Shown here piece by piece: positions 3,326-28,955 of a stretch of 32,000 nt of DNA. Origin of the DNA: Candidatus Sericytochromatia bacterium (GTDB taxonomy: Bacteria; Cyanobacteriota; Sericytochromatia; S15B-MN24; UBA4093). The DNA lies in contig JAKFCW010000047.1 of the NCBI GenBank assembly GCA_036676455.1, positions 69,203-101,202 of the forward strand, written 5' to 3'. Under the pieces are notes generated by a model. That model saw only the letters and a list, made by a program, of their open reading frames with translations, did not search any database and was not told where the DNA came from. The position numbers and the translations under genes are program-made. Numbering within the stretch: position 1 is the first letter of the stretch; each line of letters opens with the position of its first letter.

Positions 3326-3337
3326 GGCTAATCCCCG

Positions 3338-4480: not shown

Positions 4481-4818
4481 GATGCCGACGCTCCTTTTGA
4501 CGATTTGGCAGGGGCGGCGTCGATGATCTCGACCTTCAGGTCGGGCCCGTCCCATGAGAAGACGATCTGGCCGGGGCGGTCATGCGTGACCACCACGCGG
4601 CGCACGCTGCGGGGCGCCCCCGCAGGCAACACCTCCTGGCCCGGCAGGGGGGCCGCGACGGCCGGCAGGATCAGGGTCGCGGGATCCATTGCGGAGGAGG
4701 GTGCCGGGGGCTGCTGCTGGGTGGCGTAGAGGGCGCCGGTGGCGAGCAGGCCGCAGCACGCGGCGATCACGATCCGTTGCGGCGTGAGGTTACTGGTGAG
4801 GTTTCGCATGGCACTCAT
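4477..4818 (-). CDS. Small membrane-anchored hypothetical protein leading Tad locus 1
   Basis: GGGAGG upstream of ATG; N-terminal hydrophobic segment IVIAACCGLLATGALYA, Pro-rich linker, short C-terminal domain; 4-bp overlap with the next gene. Confidence 0.65.
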   Translation of the reverse strand: MSAMRNLTSNLTPQRIVIAACCGLLATGALYATQQQPPAPSSAMDPATLILPAVAAPLPGQEVLPAGAPRSVRRVVVTHDRPGQIVFSWDGPDLKVEIIDAAPAKSSKGASAS

Positions 4819-5005: not shown

Positions 5006-6115
5006 ATGACCATCCGCAGTCGAGTCGCCCTGGCGTTCGCGCTCCTCACCCCCCTGAGCGGCTGCTTCATGTGGCCCAGCACGAACGTGCAGCCGCCGGA
5101 CTGGGTCGAGCCCCCGGTCCAGGGCAGCACCTACACTCCGGGGCAACCCTCCCAGAACCCCGAGATCGAGATGTCCCGGCCCGGCTTGCAGGGCGGCACC
5201 TTCGCGGGCAGCGGAACCTCCGGCGCGGCCGACGGCGGCGCCACCGAGGCCCAGTTCCGCGAGCCCGAGGGACTCGTCATCGGCCCGGATGGCAGCCTCT
5301 ACGTCGCGGAGCCCTATGCCTACCGGATTCGCAAGGTCACGCCGGACGGCCGCGTCACCACGCTGGCCGGTGGCACGCTCGGCCGCGGTGACGGCAAGGG
5401 CGCCGGAGCCCAGTTCTTCGGGCCCAAGGACCTCGCTGTCGCGGCGAATGGCAACCTCTACGTCGTCGACTTCGATACGATCCGTCAGGTCACCCCGGAC
5501 GGCACCGTCACGACACTTAGCTTCCAGACCGCCGACGGCCCCTGGGATCCCGTCGAGCTGCTGGGAATCGCCCGCGCCACGGATGGCACCATGTACGTCT
5601 CCACGACCACCGGCATCGACCGGATCCAGGGCACCATGGCGAGCCGCTGGGTGGGCGCGGACGCCAAGGGGTTCCGCGACGGCAGCGGCACGGCGGCCTA
5701 CTTCAACCTTCCGCGCAAGCTGAGCCTCGACAGCCAGAACAACCTCTACGTCGCCGATTTCGGCAACCTGCGCATCCGCAAGGTCACCCCCTCGCGGCAG
5801 GTCACCACCGTCGCCGGCAACGGCATCCTGGGCTTCACCGACGGTGTGAGCAGCAAGTCGCGGTTGAACTTCCCGACGGGCCTCACGGTGGATAGCCAGG
5901 GCAACGTGCTCGTGGCCGACACCTACAATCACGCGATCCGGATGCTCTCGCCCGATGGCCATGTCACGACGCTGGCCGGCAACAACTACCCCGGCTTCGT
6001 GGAGGGTCCCGCGTCCTCGGTGCAGTTCAACCACCCGACCGACGTGGCCGTGGGAGGCGACGGTCGGATCTACGTGGCCGATCTCCAGAACCACCGGATC
6101 CGGGTTCTCCGCTAG
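5006..6115 (+). CDS. NHL-repeat lipoprotein
   Basis: Signal peptide and lipobox LTPLSGC; repeated units such as IRKVTPDGRVTTLAGG...GSLYVAEPYAYRIRKV, NLYVADFGNLRIRKV, VLVADTYNHAIRML, IYVADLQNHRIRVL. Confidence 0.9.
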   Translation: MTIRSRVALAFALLTPLSGCFMWPSTNVQPPDWVEPPVQGSTYTPGQPSQNPEIEMSRPGLQGGTFAGSGTSGAADGGATEAQFREPEGLVIGPDGSLYVAEPYAYRIRKVTPDGRVTTLAGGTLGRGDGKGAGAQFFGPKDLAVAANGNLYVVDFDTIRQVTPDGTVTTLSFQTADGPWDPVELLGIARATDGTMYVSTTTGIDRIQGTMASRWVGADAKGFRDGSGTAAYFNLPRKLSLDSQNNLYVADFGNLRIRKVTPSRQVTTVAGNGILGFTDGVSSKSRLNFPTGLTVDSQGNVLVADTYNHAIRMLSPDGHVTTLAGNNYPGFVEGPASSVQFNHPTDVAVGGDGRIYVADLQNHRIRVLR

Positions 6116-6128
6116 CAAAGGAGTCGTC

Positions 6129-7304
6129 ATGCCGATCCGCAGCCTTTTCCTGGCCCTGTCGCTGACCCTGGTCGCCTGCAGCTCTCCGCCCTCGACGCCG
6201 GCTCCCACCCCGTCGGCCCCGGTGGCGACTCCGCCGGTCGTGAAGCCCGTCACGACGCCTCCGCCCGGCACGACTCCCGTCACCGCGAGCGATCCGTACG
6301 TCTGGACGGTCGCGGGCAACGGAACGGCCGGCTTCCTCGATGCCGAGGAAGGCCACCTGGGCATGCTCCATGCGCCGACCGGCATGGTCGTCATTCGGGG
6401 CGACACCTACATCGCGGACTCCGCCAACCACAAGATTCGCCGCCTGACCTACGACGGTGTGCTCGAGACCGCGGTGGGCACGGGAGAGCGCGGCAACAAC
6501 GGGGATGGCACGAACGGTCCCATGCTCAAGCTCGATACGCCGTTCAAGGTGACGGCCGACGAGGCCACCGGCAACGTCTTCTTCAGCGAGCTGGGCGGCA
6601 ACCTGATCCGCTGCATCGACATCTCCCGGCGGATCATCACGATCGCCGGCGGCGGCGATTACCTGCCCGATGCCGGCACGTCCATGCGTGGCGTCTACGT
6701 GCAGCTCTCGGAACCGGCGGGACTTTCCTTCGATTCGGCCGGCGAACTCTACGTCGCCGAGCGAGGCGGCCACCGGATCCTGCGGATTTCCACCGACTGG
6801 ATGGTGACGGTGGTGGCCGGCAACGGCGTCCCGGGCTTCGCGGGCGACGACGGCCAGGCGCTGGACGCCGAGTTCCGGCAGCCCACGGACGTCTTCGTGG
6901 ACGATCAGGACAACCTCTACGTGGCCGACACTGGCAACCATCGGATCCGCCGCATCGGCTCGGACGGCACGGTCACGACCGTGGCGGGCACGGGCGTCGC
7001 GGGGGGCGAGGGGGATGGGGGGCTCGCCACGGAGGCCCAGCTGAACCACCCGACCGGAGTCACGATCGACGCCTTCGGCAACCTCTACATCGCGGACTCG
7101 GGCAACCACCGGATCCGGCAGGTGCAGCCCGACGGGACCATCGTCACGATCGCGGGCTCCATCTTCGGCGGGTACGGCGGAGACGGGGAATTGCCGTCCC
7201 AGGCGCAGTTCAACATCCCCTACGGCGTGGCCGTGGCTCCGGGCGGGGTGCTGCTGGTGGCCGATCGCGACAACCACCGCCTGCGGCAGTTCATGCTACC
7301 CTAG
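6129..7304 (+). CDS. NHL-repeat lipoprotein, paralogue of the preceding gene
   Basis: Start MPIRSLFLALSLTLVACSS with lipobox LVAC; NHL units TYIADSANHKIRRL, LYVADTGNHRIRRIGSDGTVTTVAGTG, LYIADSGNHRIRQVQPDGTIVTIAGS. Confidence 0.9.
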   Translation: MPIRSLFLALSLTLVACSSPPSTPAPTPSAPVATPPVVKPVTTPPPGTTPVTASDPYVWTVAGNGTAGFLDAEEGHLGMLHAPTGMVVIRGDTYIADSANHKIRRLTYDGVLETAVGTGERGNNGDGTNGPMLKLDTPFKVTADEATGNVFFSELGGNLIRCIDISRRIITIAGGGDYLPDAGTSMRGVYVQLSEPAGLSFDSAGELYVAERGGHRILRISTDWMVTVVAGNGVPGFAGDDGQALDAEFRQPTDVFVDDQDNLYVADTGNHRIRRIGSDGTVTTVAGTGVAGGEGDGGLATEAQLNHPTGVTIDAFGNLYIADSGNHRIRQVQPDGTIVTIAGSIFGGYGGDGELPSQAQFNIPYGVAVAPGGVLLVADRDNHRLRQFMLP

Positions 7305-7390: not shown

Positions 7391-8422
7391 TTAGTTGATG
7401 GTGATCTTGTACTCGGTAAGCGGGTCCAGCTCCGTCACGCCGAGATCCGGAAAGACCTGACCATCGTACGAGTTGAAGTCCACGTTCGCCGTGGTGGGAC
7501 CCGCCAGATCAACCGTGACGTTGCGCACCTGGCCATTGACCAGGGTGATCGCTTGCTCGATACGGTTCGCCGCGGTACCGGCGGCGTCCTTCGTGACGAT
7601 ATGCAGCTTCCAGGTGCCCGCGTGCACGGGGCCGATCGTTTGAACCTGGCCACCAGCCAGGTTGAGCATGAGGGGGGAGGCAGGATCATCCACCCAGGCA
7701 TCGAACTTGTATCCGGTCGGCAACCCATTGAGCCTCAAGCTCACCCGTCCCCAAGGCTTCACGTAGTTGACGGATTCCGCCGGAATGGCGCCGCCATTCG
7801 CCCGCATGTACTGGCCGATCTTGACTCCGTCCACCAAGCTCGGATGCATGGCCAGCGGTCCCGTGACGGTGACGCCCCACAAGATCATGTCGTTCACCAG
7901 CTTCTGCACCTGGCTGACATTCGTACTGATGGCCATCGCCGCGTTCCCGTTCTCGAGCATGTTCGTGTACACCTCGGACGTGGCAGTGGTGGTCCACGAC
8001 AAGTCGACCTCGTTGGCACCGGGCTCGATGGTCTTCACCGCGCCCACCACCGCTCCGGAGACCTCCGAGTCATCGGTCCTCAGGGCAAAGGCCTTGAAAA
8101 CGCGGTTAGGGCCCATCGGGACGTTGAACTGGACAGAGCCCGTTCCGGCGGCGATGGAAATCGTCTCGGAGAGGGGCGTCACCATCCCGGGGCCCGTGAC
8201 CTCAACGCGGGCCTTGGTGATTTCATAGGTCGGAACCGTCTGGACGCCGAAGCTGGAACTCGTGATCTTCGGAGTGAAGGCGCCCAAGGAGATCGTGACC
8301 GGCGCCGTCTTGGTAGCCACCTGAGGCACCGAGCCCTGGTCGAGAGCCGTTGGAGCGAAAGGCTGGCATGCCGAGACCGACATGGCCGCTGCTGCCGCCA
8401 GGCTGAGTATGATGCGCTTCAT
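7391..8422 (-). CDS. Hypothetical lipoprotein with beta-rich domains
   Basis: MKRIILSLAAAAAMSVSACQPFAP (signal peptide II, lipobox SVSAC); two beta-rich regions ending in GQVRNVTVDLAG...LTEYKITIN. Confidence 0.75.
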   Translation of the reverse strand: MKRIILSLAAAAAMSVSACQPFAPTALDQGSVPQVATKTAPVTISLGAFTPKITSSSFGVQTVPTYEITKARVEVTGPGMVTPLSETISIAAGTGSVQFNVPMGPNRVFKAFALRTDDSEVSGAVVGAVKTIEPGANEVDLSWTTTATSEVYTNMLENGNAAMAISTNVSQVQKLVNDMILWGVTVTGPLAMHPSLVDGVKIGQYMRANGGAIPAESVNYVKPWGRVSLRLNGLPTGYKFDAWVDDPASPLMLNLAGGQVQTIGPVHAGTWKLHIVTKDAAGTAANRIEQAITLVNGQVRNVTVDLAGPTTANVDFNSYDGQVFPDLGVTELDPLTEYKITIN

Positions 8423-8523: not shown

Positions 8524-9294
8524 TCAAACGGCTCCACCATGAGCAAGAAGTCGCTCGGTATCGGCGTAAATTGCCAGGTAATACGGAACCGTCAGCCGCT
8601 TTTGATCCTCGCACTCGAGCACCCATCCCAGGGGATGCGATACCAATACCCGTCCGTACAGGTTGCCCAGGCGCAAGCCCTCTCCAGGCCTGACCTTTTT
8701 CAAGCCCCTTCCCAAGACGAGGCTGGACAGGAGCAAACCGGTGGGGACAGCGAGGAGCGCCGAGACCCAAGGGGCCCAGGTAGCAAGGACGCTGAGTTCC
8801 AGGGTGGCCGCCAGGGTCGAAAGCCCGAATTGCGCGGATAGCAAGGCCGTCGCGATGCAGAGGGGAGGAAGGGCGATCGCCCCTTGCGGAACGATCCGCA
8901 TCTGGCGCTCCAGCTTCCGTTGCGCCGCGTCCTCGAGCTTGGCGAGCAACTCCGCGAGCACCGCTGCCACCGTTTCGGGATCGTCAGTCTGATCGAGAGT
9001 TTGCGTGAGACTTCCCCACGGGTCCCCATCCGATGGCTCAACGGGTTCGATGAGTGGCTTGCCTCTGGTCAGGAAATCGAAGAGGCGAACCCTGGATCGG
9101 ACGCTGGCATCCGGATCCGAGACAGCATCGGGAAAAACGTAGGGATTCGGACGTGGAGCGAGCTCCGGCGCTTCCACCTTGAAGACGTAGGGACTTCGAC
9201 GCGGTAGGCCCTTGATCGTGTTCAGGTCGATGACGTTAGCCATGGGACGTGCCGCAGGCGGTAGATCGGAAGTTCGCTGAGGGACGGACATCAC
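8524..9294 (-). CDS. Uncharacterised membrane protein, last gene of motor-like cluster
   Basis: AAGGAGG before ATG at 9294/9291; two to three hydrophobic segments (GAIALPPLCIATALLSAQFGL, WAPWVSALLAVPTGLLLSSLV) then a C-terminal beta-rich segment GEGLRLGNLYGRVLVSHPLGWVLECEDQKRLTVPYYLAIY. Confidence 0.7.
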   Translation of the reverse strand: MMSVPQRTSDLPPAARPMANVIDLNTIKGLPRRSPYVFKVEAPELAPRPNPYVFPDAVSDPDASVRSRVRLFDFLTRGKPLIEPVEPSDGDPWGSLTQTLDQTDDPETVAAVLAELLAKLEDAAQRKLERQMRIVPQGAIALPPLCIATALLSAQFGLSTLAATLELSVLATWAPWVSALLAVPTGLLLSSLVLGRGLKKVRPGEGLRLGNLYGRVLVSHPLGWVLECEDQKRLTVPYYLAIYADTERLLAHGGAV

Positions 9295-10025
9295 GGGGCC
9301 TCCTTCGGTTCGACCACGGGAATGGTTGCCGGGCGAGACTCGGGATAGAGCCGGATCACGATCCTGCGGTTGCGCGCCTGATTCTCCGGAATCGGCTTGC
9401 CCGCAGCGTCACGGTTGGGAACCTTCGGGTGGATATCCGAGTAGCCTGCGGCCTTGAGGCGCGATTGCTCCACGTCGGCCTCCAGCATGAAGCGGATGAC
9501 GTTCGTGGCCCGCCGCGCGGAGAGCTCCCAGTTGGAGGGAAATTCGGCGGTGCGAATCGGGTTATCGTCCGTATGCCCCTCCACCTCGATGGTGTAGGAA
9601 CGGTAGGTTTCGTTCTTCAACTCCTCGGCGATCTCGGTGAAGGTAGGCTTGATCGTCGGCAACAGCTCGGCCTTGCCGCTGTTGAAGAGGATGTTGGACG
9701 AGAATTCGACTACCACGCCCTTCTTGTCCTGGCTGACCTCGACCTGCTTTTCAAGGCCCTTGCTCTCGACGATCCGCTCGATCTGCTGCTTGATCTCCGA
9801 AATCGGACGTGCCGTTTCCTTACCGGTAAAGTCCTTTTGAAGCTGGGCGGAGACCTGCTCGAAGGCGCTGATGTCGACCGTTGAGACCGCCAGCATCATG
9901 ATGAAGAGCGCCATCAGGTTGGTGATGGTGTCGGCGTACGTGATCAGCCAGCCCTCGTCCTCCTGAAGTCCGCTGGAGCGGTGGGATCCGAAGGGATTGC
10001 GGTTCTGGCCGAAAGGACTTGCCAT
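9291..10025 (-). CDS. motB: MotB-like stator protein with C-terminal OmpA peptidoglycan-binding domain
   Basis: EDEGWLITYADTITNLMALFIMMLAVSTVD aligns with the MotB plug/TM region (Asp at residue 32); OmpA-like YTIEVEGHTDDNPI...NWELSARRATNVIRFML...KAAGYSDIHPKVPN...NRRIVIRL. Confidence 0.85.
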   Translation of the reverse strand: MASPFGQNRNPFGSHRSSGLQEDEGWLITYADTITNLMALFIMMLAVSTVDISAFEQVSAQLQKDFTGKETARPISEIKQQIERIVESKGLEKQVEVSQDKKGVVVEFSSNILFNSGKAELLPTIKPTFTEIAEELKNETYRSYTIEVEGHTDDNPIRTAEFPSNWELSARRATNVIRFMLEADVEQSRLKAAGYSDIHPKVPNRDAAGKPIPENQARNRRIVIRLYPESRPATIPVVEPKEAP

Positions 10026-10846
10026 CAGGTCCTCGCGGGGGTCTTAGCCCCCTTCGATGCCGCGAAGTGGTCGTAGTGGAAGGCGGGATCCATCAGCGCG
10101 TTCAAGCGATCCTGGACGTACAGGGGCGCCTTCTTCTGCGCGATGAGGACGATGCCCTCGAGTTGCATGTAGCGGCGGTGGCGCTGGATTTCCAGGATCT
10201 GCTGGGTCTTGGAGGCCGCCGGGATGAAGAGCAGGCGGGCCGCCATGACGCCATAGAGGGTGGCCAGGAGCGCCACGGCCATCGCGGGACCGATCTTGGA
10301 GGGGTCGGATCCCATGTTGGCCATCATGATGACCAGACCGATCAAGGTCCCCACCATCCCGAAGGCCGGCGCATGGCCACCCATCTGGTGAAGGATGGTG
10401 GCGGGAACCATGCGTCGCTGATGCTCCGACTCGATGAAGTCCCCCAGGAACAAGCGCAGGTCGGGCTCCTTGTAGCCGTTCATGAGCAGGGTCAGGGCGT
10501 ACTTCAAGAAGCCATCGAGCTTCTTTTTGGCGACCTCATCCTCGAGGGGACCGAGGCTCTGCTGGGTCGCGTAAGACCACTCGACCATCTGCTTGATGTC
10601 TGAGCGCAGGGTGCTGGGCTGGATCGGCTGCATGACGAAGATGCGGCCGAGCGTGACGAGCGCGCGCCAGACGTAGCGACTCCGCGCCCCGATCATCGCC
10701 GCGGCCACGGTGCCGCCGAAGATGATGGCAAACGGCTCCAAGCTCCAGAACATCGCGATGCTGCCGGAGTGCGCGACGATCGCCCAGCCGGTCAGGCCGA
10801 AGCCCAGGATGATTCCGAGGACGGTGGAGATCGAGATCATCGGCAT
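10025..10846 (-). CDS. motA: MotA-like stator protein
   Basis: Four hydrophobic segments; hallmark motifs GGHAPAFGMVGTLIGLVIMM and GPAMAVALLATLYGVMAARLLFIPAASK; N-terminal GIILGFGLTGWAIV...EPFAIIFGGTVAAAMI. Confidence 0.87.
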   Translation of the reverse strand: MPMISISTVLGIILGFGLTGWAIVAHSGSIAMFWSLEPFAIIFGGTVAAAMIGARSRYVWRALVTLGRIFVMQPIQPSTLRSDIKQMVEWSYATQQSLGPLEDEVAKKKLDGFLKYALTLLMNGYKEPDLRLFLGDFIESEHQRRMVPATILHQMGGHAPAFGMVGTLIGLVIMMANMGSDPSKIGPAMAVALLATLYGVMAARLLFIPAASKTQQILEIQRHRRYMQLEGIVLIAQKKAPLYVQDRLNALMDPAFHYDHFAASKGAKTPART

Positions 10847-10855
10847 TTCAACCTC

Positions 10856-12013
10856 CTATCGGAACGACATGCCGATGGTGGCATGGTAGCTCATCCCGCC
10901 GTACGTCATCGAATTCGCATAGCCGCTGCCGGCTGGGGCCAGGCTGACGTCCTGCTGCGGCACGTAGGTGAGCCCGAGGTTCATGAAGAGGTCCGGCGTG
11001 AAGCGGATCAAGAAGCCTCCCTTTGCGGTGGAGGGCTGGCGCAACGCGTCTGCGAGCGAGATCGCGAAGCCCGGCCCTGCGTACAGGTTGACCACGCCGA
11101 GGTTGTCCTTGCCCCCGAAGAGCGGGTCGAGACGCATGAACAGCAAGGGGGAGACGTTGACCAGGCCGTGATAGAGCGAGAAGTCGACGCCGCCGCCCTG
11201 GATGTACTCGGCATCGATACCGACCGCGAGATTCTCCCAGAAGTAGGTGTTGCGGAGCGCCATCACGCCAGCGCTCAGCGAGAGATCCGCATGACGCGCG
11301 GGAACTCCGGCCGTGGACGAGACCCGGTCGGCGGCGAAGCCCGTCACGCCGGAATAAAGGTAGACGCCATTGTCCCGGGTCTTCCGCTCGAGTTCGGCGC
11401 GCTTGGCGGCCTCGGCCTTGCGGGCTTCTTCCTCCGCCTTGGCGCGCATGGCGGCGCCCTGCCGAACGGCGTTGAAGTCGTAGGCATAGCGATGCGTCCA
11501 GACGATCTCGCCATCCGAGGCGCGCACCAGCTTGAGATGAACCATGACCACCTCGTTGGTCACGAAGGGCGCGTACATGAGCACGGCATCCGCCCCGACG
11601 TTTCCGGCCAGATCGCGCAGGCGATCCAGCGACTCGATGGTCGTGCTGACCTGGAGCTCGGTAGGCGTCGAGACGATCTTGCGGACCTTAGACTCGCGCG
11701 ACTCCACCACCTTGAAGCGACGAAGCGGCAGCAAGAGCTCGTGAAGGCGGTTCTCGACGAGGAGATCCAGCTTGTCGGTCTCGGGGCGGCGGCGCTCATT
11801 GAAAAGAAAGATCCGCAATAGCGTGGGATCGATCTTGGTGATCTCCTCGGGAAGCGCCGGGATGATCTGCTCGGCAGCCTGACTGTAGTTCAAGAGATCC
11901 GTGACGAGGGGATGCAGGGCAGGCGGCTCGACCTCGGCCATTGCCGGCGACGCGACGCTAGTCAAGGCGAGCGAAAGCGCGATTCCTCCAGATAGTAGCC
12001 ACTTGGCGCTCAC
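10856..12013 (-). CDS. Exported protein with FlgO/CsgG-like domain plus C-terminal outer-membrane beta-barrel-like region
   Basis: Signal peptide ending SPAMAEV; RLHELLLPLRRFKVVES...DRLRDLAGNVGADAVLMYAPFV...VHLKLVRASDGEIVWTHRYAYDF; coiled region RAKAEEEARKAEAAKRAELERK; then alternating beta-strand C terminus ending in aromatic GMSFR. Confidence 0.7.
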   Translation of the reverse strand: MSAKWLLSGGIALSLALTSVASPAMAEVEPPALHPLVTDLLNYSQAAEQIIPALPEEITKIDPTLLRIFLFNERRRPETDKLDLLVENRLHELLLPLRRFKVVESRESKVRKIVSTPTELQVSTTIESLDRLRDLAGNVGADAVLMYAPFVTNEVVMVHLKLVRASDGEIVWTHRYAYDFNAVRQGAAMRAKAEEEARKAEAAKRAELERKTRDNGVYLYSGVTGFAADRVSSTAGVPARHADLSLSAGVMALRNTYFWENLAVGIDAEYIQGGGVDFSLYHGLVNVSPLLFMRLDPLFGGKDNLGVVNLYAGPGFAISLADALRQPSTAKGGFLIRFTPDLFMNLGLTYVPQQDVSLAPAGSGYANSMTYGGMSYHATIGMSFR

Positions 12014-12016
12014 CGA

Positions 12017-12766
12017 TTACCTCCTCCGATTCCGAATCCAGTCAAGCGCTTGCTGCGCGTCCGAGAGCCGTGGGTCCAACTCGAGGGCCCGGACCCACCC
12101 TTCCTCCGCCTGGCGCTCCCGACCAAGCTTGAAGCAAATCGATCCCCGCATGGCATGCAGGTGCGCCACCTGGTCGTCCACGCCCAGCGCGGCATCGACG
12201 ACCTCCAGGGCACTCTGGTAGCGGCCCTGCTGGGCCAGGCGCGGAGCACGGTAGAGCGCGTCGGCGACGATCTGCAGGCGTTCCGAGCCCAGCTCACGCG
12301 ACGCCGGTATCGCCGGAGCCTTGGCAGCGGCCGGCATCGGCAGCTCCGCATTCTTCGGGGTGGGAGTGGGGGAGGCCTGCGCCTGCAACTCCTCTTCCGC
12401 ATACTGCAGCCATTCGTAGGGCACATGGCTGGCGCTGGGGGAAGGCATCGGCTCGGGAAGGGCGCTGGTGGCCGACTCCTTGGCGTCGGTGCTCGAGGCT
12501 TCAGGGGTCGGCGAGGCCGCGGGAATCGCCCCCGGCGCGGGAGATTTGTCCATCTCGATGCGCAGGAAGAAATCAGGTTGATTGGTATCCAAGAGGGAAT
12601 CCACGTCAACCGTTTCCAGCCCGCGCTTCAGGTGGATGACTCCCTCGCGCTGGCCGGAAACCGGCGACGTCAGGCCCTGCTGGATGAGGACGAGGGGAAG
12701 CGTGGCGACGATGGTCAGGCCGTAGGCGATCGCCCAGACGCGCCGACGGTTCGGCAGATTTGCCAT
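12017..12766 (-). CDS. Membrane-anchored protein with C-terminal TPR-like repeats
   Basis: N-terminal TM VWAIAYGLTIVATLPLVLIQQG; Pro/Ser/Ala-rich linker; QQGRYQSALEVVDAALGVDDQVAHLHAMRGSICFKLGRERQAEEGWVRALELDPRLSDAQQAL. Confidence 0.7.
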   Translation of the reverse strand: MANLPNRRRVWAIAYGLTIVATLPLVLIQQGLTSPVSGQREGVIHLKRGLETVDVDSLLDTNQPDFFLRIEMDKSPAPGAIPAASPTPEASSTDAKESATSALPEPMPSPSASHVPYEWLQYAEEELQAQASPTPTPKNAELPMPAAAKAPAIPASRELGSERLQIVADALYRAPRLAQQGRYQSALEVVDAALGVDDQVAHLHAMRGSICFKLGRERQAEEGWVRALELDPRLSDAQQALDWIRNRRR

Positions 12767-12768
12767 GG

Positions 12769-14613
12769 TTAGTTTCCTCCGGCTTGCGGAATCACCAGCA
12801 CGCGGGTGGTCTGGCGAATCCGGCTAAGCAAATCACGGCGCATGGCCTCCCGGGCCTCCGGGTTGGCATCCAGCAGAGACGGGCCCTTGAGGGCCTCCTC
12901 GACGACCATGCGGCCGCGCTCGTTGAGCGCACCAACGAGCGCGTTGAGCACGTCGGCCGGCGCATCGCGCAGCACCTCGGCGAGTTGCTCCTTGGGGAAA
13001 TCGCGGACCGCATCGCGCAGCACGTCCTTGGGGAGCTTCGGCAAGTCGTCGAATGCCACGTAGCTTTGCTTGACCTGCTTGAGCACCTGGGGGTTCTGGG
13101 TCGACAGCTCCTGCATGATGCGCCGCTCCATCTCCCGGTCGGAGTGGTCCAACAGGCCCACCAGCACGCCGATGCCGTTGGTGACGCCCGTCGAGAAGCG
13201 CGGCGCCTCCGACGCCTTGCTTGCAAGGTGAAGCGCGATGTCGTTGAAGGTCTCGAGGGGAATCTCGGAAAGCGCGCCCATGGCTGCGGTGACGGTTCCC
13301 AGCTCCCCGGGACTCAGCAGGTGCATCAGGCCGATCGCCCGCTGGGGAGGCAGCTGGGAGAAGGCCAGCGCCTGGACGCGTGGGGACTCGTCCTGGAGGA
13401 TGTAAATGATTTGCGAGTCGTCGAGCGTCTGAAGAAAGGCGAAAGGCTCGTTACGGCGCGTGCTCGTCCGAGAACCGGCCGTGTGGCGATCGCGCACGAT
13501 GGCGCGAATGGCCTCGCTGAGGGCCTGTTGCAACTCCTCGGCGGGAACGTCGGCACGCTCGAACTGCTTGAGCTCGATCGCCCGCCAGATTTCCTCCGAG
13601 ACGCCTGCGAAGAGGCGACGGCTCACGCCCGCCCCGAGGGTACGGGTCAGCAGCGAGGCCCGCTCCATGCCAAGTTCTTGACCGAGCAGCTGGTGCATGT
13701 AGCGCTCGGCAAGCTCGGGCTCGCTCAGGATCAGCATCGTCAACTCGTGGCGCAGCGGCTCGAGGTTGGGCCCCTGAGGCTCGGCCGGCGTGCTCTTGAG
13801 AGCCGAAGCCGCGTGTGCGGCCTGCGGTGCGAGGGAAGGCGCATCCGGACGACGGCGCGAACGCGTGAGCAGCCACCCCAAGCCCAGTCCGGCGCCGGCA
13901 GCCAGGACGGCCCACGCCCACGGCGGAAGGAGCGGAGAATCAGCCGTGCCGGCGGGAGTCGACGGGAAGTCGCGGCGCGTGATCTCGACGATCAGGTCCC
14001 GGGCGTAGGCATGATCCACCTTCTGGGCGACCATGTTGCGAATGAAGTCCTCATCCTGGCTCGTCAGGGAGGTGGGCAGCACGACAGAAACTTTCAAACG
14101 ATCGATCGACTGGGTTGGAGCCGGATCGTTCGGAGGAGCCACGGGCGCCGGATTCGGCAGATAGGGCATCGCCATGGAGGAAGGCGGCTCGAGCGTCTCA
14201 TCCTCACGCTGTCCCCCGAAGAGGCCCGGAAGGATCGGCGGCTCGTCGGCGCCACGTGTCGACAGAGCCGAGGGCCGCTGCGTCGGAAGCTGGGGCAGCA
14301 TCTGAGGCGCTTGCTGAGGGAGCGGCTGTTGCACGTAAGCGGGCCGCGAGCCGCGCTCTCCGCCCTCCTTGAGGATCGCCTTCACCTGCACGATGAAGCG
14401 GTCGGCGCCGAGGTAGGCGCTCAGGCCACGATCCAGGCTCTCCTCGAGGTAGCGCTCGTAGCTCAGCACTCCCAGCTCAGACTCCGATCGGGGAACTTCC
14501 GGCGGATTGAGCTGCGCGCTGGCGGCCATGGGAACGAGGGTCCCCGCCAGCAGCGCTCCAATAATGACGGCTTTTCGATTCTTCAACGGTACGCAACCTC
14601 GCAATTGGTTCAA
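12769..14613 (-). CDS. FliF(C-terminal)-FliG-like fusion protein
   Basis: N-terminal signal-like sequence; YERYLEESLDRGLSAYLGADRFIVQVKAIL and IDRLKVSVVLPTSLTSQDEDFIRNMVAQKVDHAYARDLIVEITRRDF resemble FliF periplasmic C-terminal segments; TM PWAWAVLAAGAGLGLGWLLTR; then FliG-like FAFLQTLDDSQIIYILQDESPRVQALAFSQLPPQRAIGLMHLLSPGE and FDDLPKLPKDVLRDAVRDFPKEQLAEVLRDAPADVLNALVGALNERGRMVVEEALKG. Track start is TTG; an in-frame TTG at 14586 gives MKNRKAVIIGALLAGTLVPMAASA. Confidence 0.8.
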   Translation of the reverse strand: MNQLRGCVPLKNRKAVIIGALLAGTLVPMAASAQLNPPEVPRSESELGVLSYERYLEESLDRGLSAYLGADRFIVQVKAILKEGGERGSRPAYVQQPLPQQAPQMLPQLPTQRPSALSTRGADEPPILPGLFGGQREDETLEPPSSMAMPYLPNPAPVAPPNDPAPTQSIDRLKVSVVLPTSLTSQDEDFIRNMVAQKVDHAYARDLIVEITRRDFPSTPAGTADSPLLPPWAWAVLAAGAGLGLGWLLTRSRRRPDAPSLAPQAAHAASALKSTPAEPQGPNLEPLRHELTMLILSEPELAERYMHQLLGQELGMERASLLTRTLGAGVSRRLFAGVSEEIWRAIELKQFERADVPAEELQQALSEAIRAIVRDRHTAGSRTSTRRNEPFAFLQTLDDSQIIYILQDESPRVQALAFSQLPPQRAIGLMHLLSPGELGTVTAAMGALSEIPLETFNDIALHLASKASEAPRFSTGVTNGIGVLVGLLDHSDREMERRIMQELSTQNPQVLKQVKQSYVAFDDLPKLPKDVLRDAVRDFPKEQLAEVLRDAPADVLNALVGALNERGRMVVEEALKGPSLLDANPEAREAMRRDLLSRIRQTTRVLVIPQAGGN

Positions 14614-14711: not shown

Positions 14712-15227
14712 ATGCTTGTCACTCGCCCCCTCTGGGGACTTATCTGCGGTACGCTCTTGCTGAGCGGATTCAACTCTCCGGCCTGGGCCCAGGCGGCTCG
14801 GAACGCTGAGCGATCCCCCATCGAGTTCCGTCTTCACCACCCCGAGGCCACGGCATCGACGGACGTGGATATCTGGGCGCCGGCCGATCCCCGCGTGCTT
14901 CACGACACCCAGCAGGATCTCGCGGCCATCCAGCAGTCGGTCTCGCCGTCCCGAGACTCGCGCCCATCCTTCACCGACGCGCTCCTCACGGGGATGGCCA
15001 CGCTCCCGGTCATCGGCCAGTTCGCCAACCACGACTGGATGAAGGGCCTCGTCACCTTGGGCACCGCCGCCGGCCTCACGACCGCCATCGTGATCGGCAA
15101 CGACCGGAACGACCCGCAGCTCGTGCGGCTGGGAACCCTGGGCCTCTACCCCCTGGCGGTTTTCGGAACCGTGGACGCCCTCGTCACCCGCCAGAAACGG
15201 GAAGCCAAGCCTTCGGTTCACCCATAA
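14712..15227 (+). CDS. Hypothetical exported/membrane protein
   Basis: GGAGG upstream; MLVTRPLWGLICGTLLLSGFNSPAWAQA signal peptide; two C-terminal hydrophobic segments. Start chosen over the track start at 14652. Confidence 0.55.
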   Translation: MLVTRPLWGLICGTLLLSGFNSPAWAQAARNAERSPIEFRLHHPEATASTDVDIWAPADPRVLHDTQQDLAAIQQSVSPSRDSRPSFTDALLTGMATLPVIGQFANHDWMKGLVTLGTAAGLTTAIVIGNDRNDPQLVRLGTLGLYPLAVFGTVDALVTRQKREAKPSVHP

Positions 15228-15242
15228 ACCACCGGTCACGAC

Positions 15243-16001
15243 TTAGATCTTCACCTGGGTCAGCACTGCCTCCGCACGCAACCCTGCGACCGTGAACTGG
15301 GCCTTGACGAGCCCCACCCCGGGAGCGAACCAGGCCTCGGTCGGTTCGCCATGGTCCTCGACGTAAAGCACCTTCCAGCACCCGGGAAACGTCGCCACCT
15401 CCGTCTCGACGCGTTCCAATCCGATCAGACGCGCCTTTCCGTTGATTGACGGCCAGTACATGCCCGGCGTCGCACGTTGCGGCATCATGGGCTTGCCGTC
15501 GACCTGGATCCAATCCTCGTCAACGCGGGCCTTCCATGCTTGATTCCCCGAAAGCCACCCCACCGTGAAGCGCGATTCCACCTCCAGCTCGAAACCCTGG
15601 TTCTTCGGCTCAAACCTCTGCACTGTCAGCTCCATGCGGCCTTGGGGAAACCAGCCATCGATAGCACTTAGGCGGTAATTCAAGACCGTGTTCGCACTGA
15701 AAACCATGGGCCCCTGGACGAACGTCCGTTGCACGGCCTCCGACGTCCCCCCTGCAGCCCCCTCTCCGGGAGTCGAGGGTTCTGCAACGGGAGCGTCTTT
15801 GGCTCGGTCGCTGGTGGCCCCGTCTTCTTTCCGCTTTTCCGGCTTGTCTGCCAGGGGATCAACACTCCATTCCGCCGGAGGCTGAAGCATCGTTCCCGTC
15901 TCCTGCCATTCGGCAGGCAAGCCTACACCCGAACTTGGGCATCCTGCGAGGGGCCAAGCGATCAGAAAGGCGATGGCAAACCGCGCGACCGTCCAATTCA
16001 T
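15243..16001 (-). CDS. Hypothetical lipoprotein
   Basis: MNWTVARFAIAFLIAWPLAGCPSSG lipobox; low-complexity linker; beta-rich C-terminal domain with EAWFAPGVGLVKAQF. Confidence 0.7.
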   Translation of the reverse strand: MNWTVARFAIAFLIAWPLAGCPSSGVGLPAEWQETGTMLQPPAEWSVDPLADKPEKRKEDGATSDRAKDAPVAEPSTPGEGAAGGTSEAVQRTFVQGPMVFSANTVLNYRLSAIDGWFPQGRMELTVQRFEPKNQGFELEVESRFTVGWLSGNQAWKARVDEDWIQVDGKPMMPQRATPGMYWPSINGKARLIGLERVETEVATFPGCWKVLYVEDHGEPTEAWFAPGVGLVKAQFTVAGLRAEAVLTQVKI

Positions 16002-17173
16002 GGGGTGGATTGGCCATCCGTTGGCACGATGAAAGGAATCAGGGCTGTGCGCCCAAACGCGTTCGCGCCACCATACGACCCGGATCCCTCCCAGTACTTG
16101 AGCACGTAGTAACGAGTCCCCGGATGGACCGTTTCGTCGAGCGTGAACGAGACCCGGGTCGTCATGGTCTCGGGGTCATGGGCCGAAGTCTCGTAACGCT
16201 GCAAGGGGACCAGACTCGAATTCGACTCCCTGACCGCGGAATCATAGATCTCGATGGCGTACTTCGGATCCGTCAGCCCGGTCTTGGCCGGAAACTCGAA
16301 AGTCACCTCCCGGGACTCCAGCACCGAATTCATCGCGGGAGTGGCTGCCGAGAGATCCCAACTCAAATCGAATTCGACCTCCGGGACCTCCGTTTGCGTC
16401 GCCGAAACCTGGACGGGCTCGGAGATGGCAAACTGGGGTCGGCGAGGCATGGCCGTGGCCACTGAGATCGTGCCCTCGAAGCCGGAATAGCCGGAGTAAG
16501 TGGGATACGAGCTGTGGTATCCCAGGTGGTAGGCCCCATCGCTCAGGTTGAAAAAGTTTGCGGCCCCCGCCGGGGTCACCTGGGTCGATCCGTAACTGTA
16601 AAAGTAGAACGGCGTGACACCCTCGCGCCGGAACACGCCCATCGAGAGCTGCTCACCAGTGGCTTCTCCGCCGATCACGCGACCGTAAAGCTGACTGCCC
16701 AGGACGTTTTGATCCACCAATGGAGTCAAAGGGCTGTATGGCATCACCGTGCTCTTGCCGGGGGTGTCGAGCAGGATGTGAAGCGAGGCGTAGCTGCGCC
16801 GTCCAGGCATGAGCATGGCCATGGTGTAGCCGTACCCAACGACCTCTCCGGATGCGAGCATGGCGCTGACCTTGATCGAGGCTTCCCCGGAAGGCAACCC
16901 TGAGAGGTCGATATAGTTGCTCTCAGCTTTCGGCAGGGTGCGCGTCTCCGTCCGACCATCCTCGAGCGTCAACTCGACTTTCAACTCGGCAAGATCCTCG
17001 GCGATGACCTGAGCCTTCCTCCCGAAGTCGACGCTCATGCGCAACGATGCGCCCTGGTGCTGGGACGAAACCAATGAAGGCATGGCTGCCGGGGCGCAGC
17101 CAGTTAGCCAAAGCGATGCCGCCACTGCGAGGGCGAAGGCCCGGGACGTGTGGTTTATCGTCATGTCAATCAT
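15998..17173 (-). CDS. Hypothetical lipoprotein, Ig/fibronectin-like C-terminal region
   Basis: SD-like GGGGGAGGGG before ATG 17173; AFALAVAASLWLTGCAPAA lipobox; C-terminal VHPGTRYYVLKYWEGSGSYGGANAFGRTALIPF. Confidence 0.68.
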   Translation of the reverse strand: MIDMTINHTSRAFALAVAASLWLTGCAPAAMPSLVSSQHQGASLRMSVDFGRKAQVIAEDLAELKVELTLEDGRTETRTLPKAESNYIDLSGLPSGEASIKVSAMLASGEVVGYGYTMAMLMPGRRSYASLHILLDTPGKSTVMPYSPLTPLVDQNVLGSQLYGRVIGGEATGEQLSMGVFRREGVTPFYFYSYGSTQVTPAGAANFFNLSDGAYHLGYHSSYPTYSGYSGFEGTISVATAMPRRPQFAISEPVQVSATQTEVPEVEFDLSWDLSAATPAMNSVLESREVTFEFPAKTGLTDPKYAIEIYDSAVRESNSSLVPLQRYETSAHDPETMTTRVSFTLDETVHPGTRYYVLKYWEGSGSYGGANAFGRTALIPFIVPTDGQSTP

Positions 17174-18074
17174 TCGCGACCACCCCTCCCCCTTCAAATA
17201 CGACCCCTTCCCGCATCAACGTCGAAACCACTCCGTTCTCGTCGCTGATGACTTCCTTGAGAAGGCCTTCCGATGCCCCGTACCAGCGATCCACGGTCAC
17301 CTCTGTCCATGTCTGCGCGTCGCCGGGATACTGGTTTGTCCAGCGATAATGGCGGACCTTGGTGCTCGGCGCTAGCAACTCGGAGTCCACGTAAACCGCG
17401 TGAGTCGGGATGGCGGTCCAGGAATCCGTCGGGTAAGATTCCGACACTCCTGCTCCAATTCGACGATAAACCGTCGAATACTGCACCTGAAAGGTCACCG
17501 CGACCCGCTGGGAGTCACGCGTAAGCCAGAAGAGCAATTGCTGCTGGTTCGGATAATACGCGGCAAAATCCGAATCGAATCCGTCTGCATGGCTCAGACG
17601 GCGGTAATCAAGCAGGCGTTGCCCAAAGCTGACACCAAGATCGAGTGCCGGCTTACCCCCGTGGAGTAGGCTGAAACTGACAGGTGTCTCCTCGCCCGGC
17701 AAGAGGACGACGGCCATTTGCTGCCTATCGTGCATCGCGTGGGTCTCGGCGTCGCGCGCCGTCACGGTTACCGTGACGGGACCGGGCACGAGATTCGCGA
17801 TTACAGTCGGTTCGTCGAGTTGAAGGACCCGGGGTTCAACCACGACATTGCGATACTCCCAGCCCGAGTACGCAACTTCGAGGAGCACCTCGATGCCTGC
17901 GGTGCTCTGGAGCTGGCGAGGCACAGAGACAATCGCTCTCATGCGACTCGTCTCGGCACTGGCGATCTCGGTCGCAGGTTGCAGAGTCGTCCCCGTCGTG
18001 GTCACGCCCTCGCAGCCCAGAAGGAACATGGTGGGCAGGGCCAAGAGCAGACCCCATCGATTCATCTTGCGCAT
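17166..18074 (-). CDS. Hypothetical lipoprotein
   Basis: MRKMNRWGLLLALPTMFLLGCEGV lipobox; beta-rich IVSVPRQLQSTAGIEVLLEVAYSG; C-terminal DRWYGASEGLLKEVI. Start at 18074 rather than the track start at 18116. Confidence 0.68.
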   Translation of the reverse strand: MRKMNRWGLLLALPTMFLLGCEGVTTTGTTLQPATEIASAETSRMRAIVSVPRQLQSTAGIEVLLEVAYSGWEYRNVVVEPRVLQLDEPTVIANLVPGPVTVTVTARDAETHAMHDRQQMAVVLLPGEETPVSFSLLHGGKPALDLGVSFGQRLLDYRRLSHADGFDSDFAAYYPNQQQLLFWLTRDSQRVAVTFQVQYSTVYRRIGAGVSESYPTDSWTAIPTHAVYVDSELLAPSTKVRHYRWTNQYPGDAQTWTEVTVDRWYGASEGLLKEVISDENGVVSTLMREGVVFEGGGVVAND

Positions 18075-18078
18075 TACC

Positions 18079-19566
18079 CTACCCTTCCTCGGACGGTGCG
18101 GCCGGCGTGAAGTCAATCAACTCGTAGGTGGTCACCTGGCGCTGGCGAGGGAGGGGGTCCCGTTTGCCTTCGTGGGAATAGTGGTATCCACCGACGCGAG
18201 TCTCCACGGAGCGCACGACGCCCACGCCCTCGACCAGCCAAACCTCACGGGTGACTCCGGATTCGGGGCTGGTGAAATAGTGCTTCGCCAGTCGTTGACC
18301 GAGGGCCGGAACGTTGAGCGTCACCTCAGGCAAGGTCTGGATGCCGTTAGTGGAACTCAAGCGAAAGATCGGACTCAGCTCGGAAGCGGACCCGTTCGCC
18401 AAGTCGAACGCCCGCAAGGTCGAGTAGCTGTAGGACTCATATTGCCCGCGCCCGTCGTCATCGAGCATCTCCACCCGCATCGTGCGGCTCCAGGACGACG
18501 TGCCCCCTCCCTGAGACTGCGGATAAGTGTAAGTTGTGCTCACAAGGTAGTTCCAGCGCGTACCGGCGGCCAGGGGGAGTGCCTCGAAAGGCGGCTTCCA
18601 AAGGTCCTGCCCCACCCAGCGAGTGGGGTTCTGGGGTGGGGCATCCGGAACCTCGATGAGTTCCACGTCTAGCGAGGCGGTGGCCTGCGTGGGCATCGAG
18701 AAGTCGATACTACGTGACGTGACGCCGTCCACCATGACCATGAACTTCGGCTGGAGCTTGTCGGGCTTGGTGAAGTAATCGGCAAAACCGGAGAGCAGGT
18801 CATGGGGGACCGTCAGGGTGAGTTGCGTGTCGGAATCGACGGTGACGGCGGTTTCCGGAAGCGACCTGCGCATCATTCCAAACCCTCCTGATGGCACTGG
18901 CATCGGGAAGATGAGGTTTGAATAAGGCAGGTACTGGTAATTCAGCCCCACGTAAGCCAGGGTTTTCCAGTTCTTGGACTTGCCAAAGCCAGAGCCGGCG
19001 ACGATGATCCGGTCTCCAACCCGCCAGTCGCTCTTGGACAGCGAGGTGATCACCGGCGCGTCAACGGCCACGAGCTCCATGCCGACCGTCGCGAAGAGGC
19101 CAGGCACGACGTCGATGCGCTTCTCGTCCGAAGCCACGACCTGATTCTGAGCGTCACGAACTTCTGCCTGAATGAGCAGATCCGCCTGGACCGGAAGGTC
19201 CCATCTCAAGGAACCGTAAGTGTTGAACCCGGCGGGGTAAGGGCCGTAGTAATAGGGATCCGCCTGGCGGTAGATCTCCACGGGGGCGATCGCCTTTCCC
19301 GACGAATCAATCGCCTGCGATCCATCCGCGCGCGTCAGCGTAACGACCGCCTTGATCGCCCGGTTGGGAATCGCCTGGAGGGAGGAACCGGAATCCGGCC
19401 AGCGAATGCCCAGCCCCAGGCCGCCGACTCCAGCCTGTGTGTGCGCCTCCGTTTGCCCCGTGCCGATCGCATTCGAGGTCCACTGAGTGCCAACAGGAAC
19501 CGTGCAACCCAACAGGGCTGAAACGAGGCCGAAGGCGATCCACGTCTTGAAATCTCGCTGTCTCAT
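18079..19566 (-). CDS. Hypothetical lipoprotein with IPT/TIG-like domain
   Basis: MRQRDFKTWIAFGLVSALLGCTVP lipobox; IPT/TIG-like PVITSLSKSDWRVGDRIIVAGSGFGKS...LTLTVPHDL; C-terminal EVWLVEGVGVVRSVE. Confidence 0.7.
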   Translation of the reverse strand: MRQRDFKTWIAFGLVSALLGCTVPVGTQWTSNAIGTGQTEAHTQAGVGGLGLGIRWPDSGSSLQAIPNRAIKAVVTLTRADGSQAIDSSGKAIAPVEIYRQADPYYYGPYPAGFNTYGSLRWDLPVQADLLIQAEVRDAQNQVVASDEKRIDVVPGLFATVGMELVAVDAPVITSLSKSDWRVGDRIIVAGSGFGKSKNWKTLAYVGLNYQYLPYSNLIFPMPVPSGGFGMMRRSLPETAVTVDSDTQLTLTVPHDLLSGFADYFTKPDKLQPKFMVMVDGVTSRSIDFSMPTQATASLDVELIEVPDAPPQNPTRWVGQDLWKPPFEALPLAAGTRWNYLVSTTYTYPQSQGGGTSSWSRTMRVEMLDDDGRGQYESYSYSTLRAFDLANGSASELSPIFRLSSTNGIQTLPEVTLNVPALGQRLAKHYFTSPESGVTREVWLVEGVGVVRSVETRVGGYHYSHEGKRDPLPRQRQVTTYELIDFTPAAPSEEG

Positions 19567-19576
19567 GCTTCGTCCC

Positions 19577-21301: not shown

Positions 21302-21315
21302 GGCTGTTACCTCGG

Positions 21316-22863: not shown

Positions 22864-22916
22864 GGTGTCGCGCGGTCTCCTGCTACATCGAAATGCGATC
22901 AATTGCACGTCTTGCG

Positions 22917-26500: not shown

Positions 26501-26552
26501 GCGCGGGAAATCTCCGACGTGAACCTGGGGACGGCCTCGGCCGCGTGGGAGC

Positions 26553-26579
26553 ATCATACCAAACAAGCATGTTTTCTAA
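26553..26579 (-). promoter_or_regulatory. Candidate extended -10 promoter for the 26500 gene
   Basis: Minus strand TTAGAA-15 nt-TATGAT with TGG immediately before TATGAT, in the divergent gap between genes starting at 26500(-) and 26612(+). Confidence 0.3.
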
Positions 26580-28954: not shown

Positions 28955-28955
28955 G

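Follow-up and report, generated by a model that had tools for sequence, protein, structure and literature searches.

The stretch analysed here (referred to as the window) comprises 32,000 nucleotides of DNA from a Candidatus Sericytochromatia bacterium (GenBank assembly GCA_036676455.1, contig JAKFCW010000047.1, positions 69,203 to 101,202 of the forward strand), a member of the non-photosynthetic sister lineage of the cyanobacteria. The subject of this report is a cluster of six minus-strand genes at window positions 8524-14613, which encodes homologues of flagellar rotor and stator proteins together with putative envelope proteins. An earlier note, made from the raw sequence, had read this cluster as a flagellum-derived motor without a flagellum. 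All six open reading frames were found at the coordinates given there, with intervening gaps of 2, 3 and 9 nucleotides followed by overlaps of 1 and 4 nucleotides, and the component identities proposed in that note were all borne out using Pfam, NCBIfam, Foldseek and hhalign. In order of transcription the genes are:

12769-14613, minus strand: gene 1, rotor fusion, 614 residues from a TTG start codon
12017-12766, minus strand: gene 2, TPR protein
10856-12013, minus strand: gene 3, outer-membrane barrel protein
10025-10846, minus strand: gene 4, MotA-type protein
9291-10025, minus strand: gene 5, MotB-type protein
8524-9294, minus strand: gene 6, lineage-specific protein

The set formed by the first five genes, versions of which recur elsewhere, is referred to as the cassette, and related loci are designated by numbers preceded by L. 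Translation of gene 1 can begin at a TTG codon at 14613, giving 614 residues, or at a TTG codon at 14586, giving the 605 residues reported by public gene callers. A GGAGG-type Shine-Dalgarno sequence was identified at every junction of the six genes, within the 3' end of the preceding gene. As the gene upstream of gene 1 (14712-15227, plus strand) is divergent, the cluster represents the start of its own transcription unit; its base composition is that of the flanks, and a scan of the cluster for consensus promoters and terminators was uninformative in this GC-rich organism. Public homologues were found for all six genes, the first five of which stand in the same order in the Sericytochromatia-type relatives L001 and L003, down to 41% identity, indicating that these are real genes and not chance open reading frames in GC-rich DNA. 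The larger open reading frames of the window (small ones were not scanned) were searched against Pfam and NCBIfam and contained none of the families of the flagellar switch, export apparatus, rod, hook or filament, consistent with the absence of FliM, FliN and the export, rod, hook and filament genes from the window that had been claimed.

Rotor fusion and stator proteins

The product of gene 1 was assigned to FliG using Pfam (FliG_M, E = 2.4e-7; FliG_C, E = 1.8e-9), and residues 389-613 were aligned with Thermotoga FliG in a phmmer search of PDB sequences (E = 3.8e-14). A model calculated from 17 homologues using AlphaFold2, with a predicted local distance difference test score (pLDDT) of 68, displays a signal-like N-terminus followed by a periplasmic ring-building motif (RBM), a membrane helix and a helical cytoplasmic region. 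Using Foldseek, the cytoplasmic region was matched to full-length FliG (PDB ID: 3hjl) with E = 3.7e-8 over 315 of 321 columns, and further FliG matches were obtained to 8umx, 9n49 and 1lkv, including FliG chains of the Salmonella C-ring. Because the alignment spans full-length FliG, the N-like, middle and C domains are all represented. The following features were delineated, with residues given in the 605-residue numbering:

13975-14469, minus strand: periplasmic ring-building domain, residues 40-204 (AlphaFold2, homologue alignment, hhalign)
14221-14232, minus strand: LPGL motif in the insertion of this domain, residues 119-122 (family conservation, hhalign)
13867-13923, minus strand: membrane helix leading from the periplasmic ring domain to FliG, residues 222-240 (AlphaFold2)
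12793-13761, minus strand: cytoplasmic FliG-like region with N-like, middle and C domains, residues 276-598 (Foldseek, phmmer)
12886-12921, minus strand: torque helix in FliG_C, residues 556-567 (alignment to T. maritima FliG)

In the AlphaFold2 model the ring domain is built from an alpha-beta element, a disordered Pro/Gln-rich insertion of ~85 residues and a beta-alpha-beta element, yielding a single alpha-beta-beta-alpha-beta ring-building unit and not the three RBMs between two membrane helices that are found in FliF. Since only one such unit is present, RBM1 and RBM2 are absent from the fusion, the periplasmic part of which measures ~190 residues compared with ~400 in FliF. Foldseek comparison with FliF MS-ring and S-ring structures gave weak matches (E = 0.4-1.5, probability 0.8-0.9), with one FliF model at E = 5.5e-4, and a sequence profile of the periplasmic ring domain returned nothing meaningful when searched against PDB sequences. 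At the level of the family, the Pfam model YscJ_FliF_C was matched by 20 of 59 diverse members (best E = 7e-8, above the gathering score) and weakly by four of the 17 close relatives of gene 1; in the family member P0053 the entire model is covered. Alignment of the 59 members with canonical Aneurinibacillus FliF was carried out using hhalign and yielded a probability of 93% (E = 3e-7) over FliF residues 243-406, which represent RBM3 with its collar insertion. The LPGL(P) motif of the family was aligned by hhalign with the 'IPGY' collar motif of FliF, and LPGL is the best-conserved periplasmic feature of the family (L in 57, P in 58 and G in 57 of the 59 members). Judged from these alignments, the FliF link of the fusion is firm at the family level.

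At the position of the EHPQR FliM-binding motif the fusion displays ESPR or EGPR, of which only the Glu is kept (53/59), and neither the scanned open reading frames of the window nor the gene tables for eight related loci contained a FliM or FliN family. Within the torque helix, R557 is equivalent to R281 of E. coli FliG and is invariant in the clade, with Arg or Lys in 56 of the 59 diverse members, while E564 corresponds to D288, a position that is acidic across the clade. In gene 1, a signal peptide, a single S-ring-type domain of FliF and one membrane helix are naturally fused to full-length FliG; the proposed identity of its product as a FliF/FliG fusion is upheld for FliG by Foldseek, over the full length, and for RBM3 of FliF by YscJ_FliF_C and hhalign. 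Salmonella FliF-FliG fusions are compatible with motor function. The covalent join of gene 1 is shared with engineered and mutant FliF-FliG fusions of Salmonella and Vibrio (PDB ID: 8z4d), in which it is compatible with ring assembly. However, the laboratory fusions of the 8z4d type contain full-length FliF in a complete flagellum, whereas the cassette fusion is natural, includes the S-ring half only and is encoded outside a flagellar locus.

Gene 4 encodes a MotA-type protein (Pfam MotA_ExbB, E = 5.7e-21) that has four membrane helices and, in the cytoplasm, a torque-generating domain; the protein was aligned over its full length to solved MotA/PomA structures in the PDB (E about 1e-28). The MotA/PomA models of NCBIfam were matched with E-values of 1e-43 to 1e-34, compared with 7e-4 to 2e-2 for the TolQ/ExbB models, and the NCBIfam equivalog cut-offs were missed by both stator proteins (PRK09109 for gene 4, 146 bits against 237; MotD for gene 5, 166 bits against 283). 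Residue E102 of gene 4, the acidic position facing FliG, corresponds to E96 of PomA and E98 of the E. coli protein, and the E. coli counterparts of P160 and P209 are P173 and P222; E102, P160 and P209 are invariant across eight cassettes. In gene 5 (Pfam MotB_plug, E = 1.7e-15; OmpA, E = 9.8e-18; MotB in the PDB, E = 2e-30), the proton-binding channel residue MotB Asp32 was located in the sequence 'TYAD' within the membrane helix (codon 9930-9932), upstream of an OmpA-like peptidoglycan-binding domain, and each of the seven cassettes examined has this Asp. Genes 4 and 5 are accordingly identified as flagellar-type MotA and MotB with catalytic residues intact by alignment, and the identities given to them in the earlier note were refined to flagellar-type by NCBIfam and the full-length PDB alignments. 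Pairwise scores among cassette MotA proteins range from 148 to 239 bits, as against 88-116 bits to flagellar PomA/MotA, and MotA2 of Aliivibrio fischeri is nearer to Sericytochromatia MotA than to Vibrio PomA; that the cassette proteins are closest to each other indicates a dedicated stator lineage.

The ZorB models of PADLOC were also matched by gene 5 (E = 4e-24), as would be expected of a Zorya-type anti-phage defence system employing the MotAB-like channel as an envelope sensor. However, no ZorA match was obtained for gene 4, the locus is without a ZorA-like long tail or a ZorC/ZorD-type nuclease or helicase (PADLOC), and the other four proteins gave no match to defence models save a weak, chance-level DrmC match of protein 6. 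The ZorB matches of gene 5 are attributed to shared MotB ancestry and, being the only matches of Zorya type, led to the rejection of this explanation, which we regard as extremely improbable.

Envelope proteins and distribution of the cassette

The gene 2 protein contains an N-terminal membrane anchor, identified by hydropathy, a conserved G.I.LRR.G...D.D motif, a variable Pro-rich linker and a C-terminal two-repeat TPR unit (Pfam TPR_2), in which an alignment that included eight orthologues of other cassettes revealed invariant residues. Lipoproteins are among these orthologues, indicating a periplasmic location, and the earlier reading as a membrane-anchored TPR protein stands. In the AlphaFold2 model of the gene 3 protein (pLDDT 77), the signal peptide is followed by an alpha/beta domain (~60-180), from which a long helix (180-211) leads to a small 8-strand beta-barrel (216-384). 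Using Foldseek, the barrel was found to resemble OmpA, OmpW and Ail, and the alpha/beta domain TolB-N, LpoB, PelC and GNA1162. The Pfam FlgO model was matched below its gathering score (E = 0.056, 13.7 bits compared with a cut-off of 22.6), a precomputed FlgO match is attached to some orthologues, and one source labels a homologue 'TolB-like'. The alpha/beta domain belongs to the fold class of FlgO and FlgP, several members of which form rings beneath the outer membrane, and the description of the protein as FlgO-like plus barrel was confirmed by both AlphaFold2 and Foldseek as an outer-membrane barrel with a domain of TolB-N/LpoB/PelC/FlgO type.

A FlgO/FlgP/LpoB-type fold and a periplasmic TPR protein are likewise found beside the stators in the scaffolds of Vibrio, Campylobacter and Helicobacter motors (the FlgO/FlgP/FlgT H-ring, the basal disc and PflA/PflB), which suggests, by analogy, that the envelope proteins of the cassette may position the stator or bridge the envelope. 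However, the likeness to the Vibrio and Campylobacter scaffolds is one of fold only, given the FlgO score above, and the FlgO-like domain of the cassette is fused to an 8-strand barrel; similarly, the TPR protein is small, with two repeats, and its likeness to PflA/PflB is one of type and not demonstrated homology.

Gene 6 is translationally coupled to motB and encodes two hydrophobic helices, with no Pfam or NCBIfam match. A homologue was identified by BLASTP only in L001 (30% identity, E = 2e-9) and in none of the other cassettes, and gene 6 was therefore rejected as a core part. Of the six-gene cluster originally described, the six packed genes are present, but the conserved unit comprises five genes, as gene 6 is kept only in the closest lineage.

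The envelope proteins also bear on an explanation in which force is transmitted without a spinning ring, in the manner of Tol-Pal or TonB: MotAB would energise a FliG-like transducer, and the TPR and outer-membrane proteins would serve outer-membrane maintenance, transport or vesicle release. Set against the known composition of Tol-Pal, the cluster includes a channel of the MotA/TolQ family, a partner of MotB/TolR type that carries an OmpA/Pal-like domain, a gene 3 protein with a TolB-N-like domain and a CpoB-like TPR protein, and it encodes no axle or obvious rotary output. However, the stator, which has a complete torque domain in the cytoplasm, is flagellar in type and not ExbB/TolQ-like, the FliG torque helix and the ring-building domain are kept, which would be sensible for a ring pushed from the cytoplasmic side, and no TolA or TonB-like family was found in the cluster using Pfam and NCBIfam. 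We consider this explanation unlikely. More generally, TolQR-Pal, ExbBD-TonB, GldLM of type IX secretion and gliding, AglRQS and ZorAB share with the cassette the concept of a MotA/MotB-family channel that drives work in the envelope, but they have no rotor ring of the FliG/FliF type, the cassette stator belongs to the flagellar and not to the TolQ/ExbB branch, and the cassette has no equivalent of TolA, TonB, GldM or the ZorA tail.

The closest named relative of the window cluster is that of Candidatus Sericytochromatia CBMW_12 (L001), with 61% identity and an identical six-gene order; in L008 the first four genes are present before the contig ends. Other phyla also carry the cassette. Loci L010 of A. 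fischeri, L013 of Vibrio sp. SCSIO 43136 and L014, a metagenomic contig, encode all five families, arranged as barrel, TPR, fusion, MotA, MotB. The window and A. fischeri fusions were aligned end to end, including the periplasmic region (E = 6e-32), their MotA proteins are 34% identical, and the A. fischeri barrel protein is homologous to gene 3 (hhalign, 94.7%); orthologues of gene 3 were also identified by BLASTP in L014, L016 and L017. Locus L015 contains the TPR, fusion, MotA and MotB genes together with a 372-residue barrel candidate without a BLASTP match to gene 3. Adjoining these genes is an extra 532-residue protein (L015, 5291-6889) with YscJ_FliF_C (E = 1e-7) and a C-terminal TPR, which looks like a hybrid of ring domain and adaptor.

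An exhaustive profile search of 1.84 billion representatives was used to assess the extent of the fusion family and yielded 94 clusters with E <= 1e-30. The 150 top-ranking entries listed included 149 new proteins, 133 of them at least 480 residues long; of these long representatives, 130 have an internal membrane helix before ~300 FliG-like residues and 123 an LPG-type motif ahead of the helix. The fusion architecture is therefore represented by at least 130 protein clusters (50% identity), and the 22 close relatives returned by a word-indexed homologue search reflect the limited sensitivity of that method, as judged by the exhaustive search. Named carriers are Aliivibrio fischeri, A. finisterrensis, Vibrio nigripulchritudo, V. 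penaeicida and V. agarivorans, and carriers among metagenome-assembled genomes include Saccharospirillaceae/Pseudomonadales, Pseudomonadota and one member of the Fibrobacteraceae; for the Saccharospirillaceae and Fibrobacteraceae genomes the fusion protein alone was recorded. Fibrobacteraceae are not known to be flagellated.

Several further observations concern members of this family. Soluble proteins of ~310 residues (P0072, P0083, P0089, P0154, P0162, P0163, P0166 and P0182), one cluster of which is from Candidatus Marinimicrobia, outscore many listed fusions on the family profile and, from their sequences, may be an unfused version of the cassette FliG. Two carriers (P0018 and P0019, from GCA_036704125.1 and another metagenome-assembled genome) are labelled by NCBI as Pantanalinema and Stenomitos, i.e. 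photosynthetic cyanobacteria; identity of their cassette proteins to the Sericytochromatia type is 41-44%, the loci have the DUF5723 neighbour in common, and the taxonomic labels may need checking. The proposition that every member of the fusion family adjoins MotAB was examined and failed. In L012 (8001-11709) a distant 771-residue member is followed by a KAP-family P-loop NTPase, with no MotAB nearby, so that at least one further type of partner exists for membrane-anchored FliG-like proteins. In L016 (7523-9076) the gene order is that of the window, but two proteins of ~255 residues stand in place of MotA and MotB and, from their signal peptides and terminal F, look like small outer-membrane barrels, and in L017 the fusion is accompanied by a PorP/TraF_2-type barrel and immunoglobulin (Ig)-repeat proteins.

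The stator of the A. fischeri cassette was identified as motA2B2 by primer matches: the motA2 and motB2 disruption primers of Brennan et al. 2013, designed for another strain, match the MotA and MotB genes of L010 with 1 and 3 mismatches. The locus tags given for V. fischeri motA2B2 in a later paper are VF_A0186/VF_A0187. Brennan et al. 2013 (PMC3948606) report normal soft-agar motility for V. fischeri motA2 and motB2 mutants and activation by FlrA, the master regulator of the flagellum, for motA1B1 but not for motA2B2. In one biofilm-inducing condition motA2B2 decreased alongside some flagellar genes (PMC10804989). In the literature searched, A. fischeri motA2B2 are named as paralogues without a motility phenotype; no paper was found on the fusion, TPR or barrel genes or on the cassette as a unit, and a recent survey of MotAB diversity makes no mention of the cassette. 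Like the window, the motA2B2 locus comprises the barrel, TPR, FliF-FliG fusion, MotA and MotB families; unlike the window, it has a different gene order, no gene 6 and no DUF5723 or Tad neighbours.

The A. fischeri data bear on the question of whether the cassette provides accessory or alternative parts for a true flagellum encoded elsewhere, either as a second rotor/stator set or as a periplasmic scaffold of a specialised (sheathed, high-torque) motor. Flagellar counterparts exist for all five proteins (FliF, FliG, MotA, MotB, FlgO/FlgP and the TPR proteins PflA/PflB), A. fischeri is itself flagellated, and the decrease of motA2B2 with some flagellar genes noted above is in line with such a role. 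Features common to the cassette and the core of the flagellar motor are the RBM3/S-ring domain of FliF, including the collar motif, a full-length FliG that has the torque helix, and a stator of the MotA5B2 family with plug, Asp32 and peptidoglycan-binding domain. However, FliF and FliG are separate in the flagellum and one polypeptide here, and the cassette has neither RBM1, RBM2 and EHPQR nor, in its locus, genes for FliM/FliN, the export gate, the rod, the hook or the filament. In FliF, RBM1 and RBM2 surround the export gate. A fusion without RBM1/RBM2 and EHPQR would therefore be unable to replace FliF/FliG in a normal basal body. Moreover, the A. fischeri mutants swim normally and the genes lie outside FlrA control, the cassette stators form their own lineage, and the cassette travels across phyla as a unit, away from flagellar loci. 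We judge a role as accessory flagellar parts to be quite improbable; the non-flagellar reading of the earlier note is supported by the dispensability of motA2B2 for soft-agar motility, by its position outside the FlrA regulon and by the missing RBM1/RBM2 and EHPQR of the fusion.

Neighbouring genes

The following neighbours of the cluster were assigned using Pfam and NCBIfam:

2630-4555, minus strand: ParA/MinD-like (TadZ-like) protein and a short T2SSF protein, on the far side of the cassette
23097-24389, minus strand: FadL/TraF_2-like outer-membrane barrel, DUF5723 (Pfam DUF5723, E = 1.1e-11)
27980-29963, minus strand: two TadB/TadC-like T2SSF proteins
29891-31444, minus strand: CpaF-type ATPase (T2SSE, E = 9e-65)

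The cassette of the window therefore lies between two Tad-like gene groups, and open reading frames of matching length and order (not family-scanned) are present in L001 of CBMW_12, raising the question of whether it represents the motor module of a neighbouring Tad-type pilus, acting in rotation, extension or retraction. Against this, Tad pili are powered by their own ATPase, and no Tad genes are present within about 10 kb of the cassettes of L003, L008, Vibrio, L014 and L015, and with adjacency confined to two close lineages Tad pilus coupling was rejected as a general explanation; we hold it to be very improbable.

The DUF5723 barrel, of ~430 residues, adjoins the cassette in L001, L003, L004 and L008 and was found with every Sericytochromatia-type locus seen; it is possibly an accessory of the cassette, of uncertain membership. 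It lies directly upstream of the cassette in CBMW_12 and is separated from it by six genes in the window. In the window (23097-26566, minus strand) and L001 (5745-9362) the barrel is preceded by a protein of 726-776 residues without a family match, and in L003 (8410-9735) and L008 (8436-9737) it is divergent and stands beside a gene of ~131-135 residues. Elsewhere, a 781-residue surface Ig-like protein neighbours the cassette of Vibrio sp. SCSIO 43136, and in L017 a TraF_2/PorP_SprF barrel adjoins the fusion gene, with a PKD/Big_9 protein nearby. Overall, FadL/TraF_2/PorP-type barrels or Ig-repeat proteins adjoin the cassette in three lineages, a hint of an output on surface proteins; the PorP/SprF- or FadL-like barrels and Ig-repeat proteins among them recall the setting of gliding and type IX secretion.

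Scans of neighbouring window genes using NCBIfam gave no names. Six consecutive genes of 252-574 residues at 15243-22908 (minus strand) have no Pfam or NCBIfam family match; several carry lipoprotein-type signal peptides, as judged by eye, and one has weak CarboxypepD_reg and Big_2 matches. A pair of adjoining genes at 5006-7304 (plus strand), shortly beyond the downstream end of the cluster, encodes NHL-repeat beta-propeller proteins (Pfam NHL, E about 1e-35) whose N-termini look lipoprotein-like by eye, and an NHL protein is also present at the edge of L003. A predicted lipoprotein of 343 residues without a family match (7391-8422, minus strand) follows the cluster after 101 nucleotides, has its own ribosome-binding site and occupies the same position in the near-identical contig L007.

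Proposed ion-driven engine

Taken as a whole, the five conserved genes probably encode a self-contained, ion-driven rotor-stator engine apart from any flagellum. Through the ring-building domain, subunits of the fusion would assemble into a ring in the membrane, placing the S-ring-type domain on the outer side and FliG on the inner side; because every subunit carries its own FliG, separate docking of FliG to FliF would be unneeded. Units of the MotA5B2 type, fixed to the peptidoglycan by MotB, would pass ions and push the FliG ring, causing it to turn, and the loss of the FliM-binding motif together with the lack of switch genes in the locus makes turning in one direction probable. The TPR protein and the FlgO/LpoB-like barrel protein would link the ring to the outer membrane, where they may form a stator scaffold like FlgO/FlgP and PflA/PflB of the Vibrio and Campylobacter motors or, alternatively, receive torque via the invariant LPGL motif. 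With low confidence, the engine is proposed to do mechanical work on the outer membrane or at the cell surface, e.g. to move or tension surface proteins that FadL/PorP-type barrels hold.

Several observations weigh against an engine of this kind. The rotor-stator interface is only partly canonical: a contact of the E98-R281 type is kept, whereas one of the R90-D289 type is not, the equivalents of FliG D289 and R297 being not conserved in the fusion and the position of E. coli R90/PomA R88 being occupied by Gln in MotA of the window and its clade, compared with Arg in the Vibrio and L014 cassettes. The AlphaFold2 model of gene 1 is of moderate quality at the pLDDT stated above, the window protein has no direct Pfam FliF match, and its FliF assignment is transferred from family-level homology together with the weak Foldseek matches. 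In L016 and L017 the fusion, TPR and barrel genes occur without adjacent MotAB, and the neighbours that point to a surface output are not conserved in all lineages. The absence of flagellar genes applies to the 32-kb window, and a flagellar regulon elsewhere in the host is possible. Finally, rotation, ring formation and output are deduced from the gene content.

To our knowledge, every known use of the FliF/FliG rotor is within the flagellum, and the non-flagellar MotAB relatives known to us (Tol, Ton, Gld, Agl and Zorya) all work without such a rotor. A system consisting of rotor, stator and two envelope proteins only is unlike these and would therefore constitute a new class of ion-driven machine and, if the proposal is true, the first non-flagellar machine known with a FliG/FliF rotor. 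A more far-reaching version is put forward tentatively, as conceivable but short of probable: the cassette may be a free-standing rotary engine, in which a FliF-FliG ring is spun by its own MotAB lineage with neither a secretion system nor an axle, representing an unseen envelope activity in several phyla and either an ancient sister of the flagellar motor or an early repurposed offshoot of it. As the cassette is present in A. fischeri, which is genetically tractable and has been imaged by cryo-electron tomography, the idea is directly testable, and it bears on motA2B2 of that species, a puzzle since 2013. It would also provide a function for more than 100 protein clusters that are labelled 'FliG C-terminal domain-containing protein' or mislabelled as flagellar switch protein. 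The finding bears on the origin of the rotary motor and on the use of a rotor-stator pair without a filament; in the ancient-sister case, if true, the cassette would preserve the role that rotor and stator had before they joined a type III secretion system.

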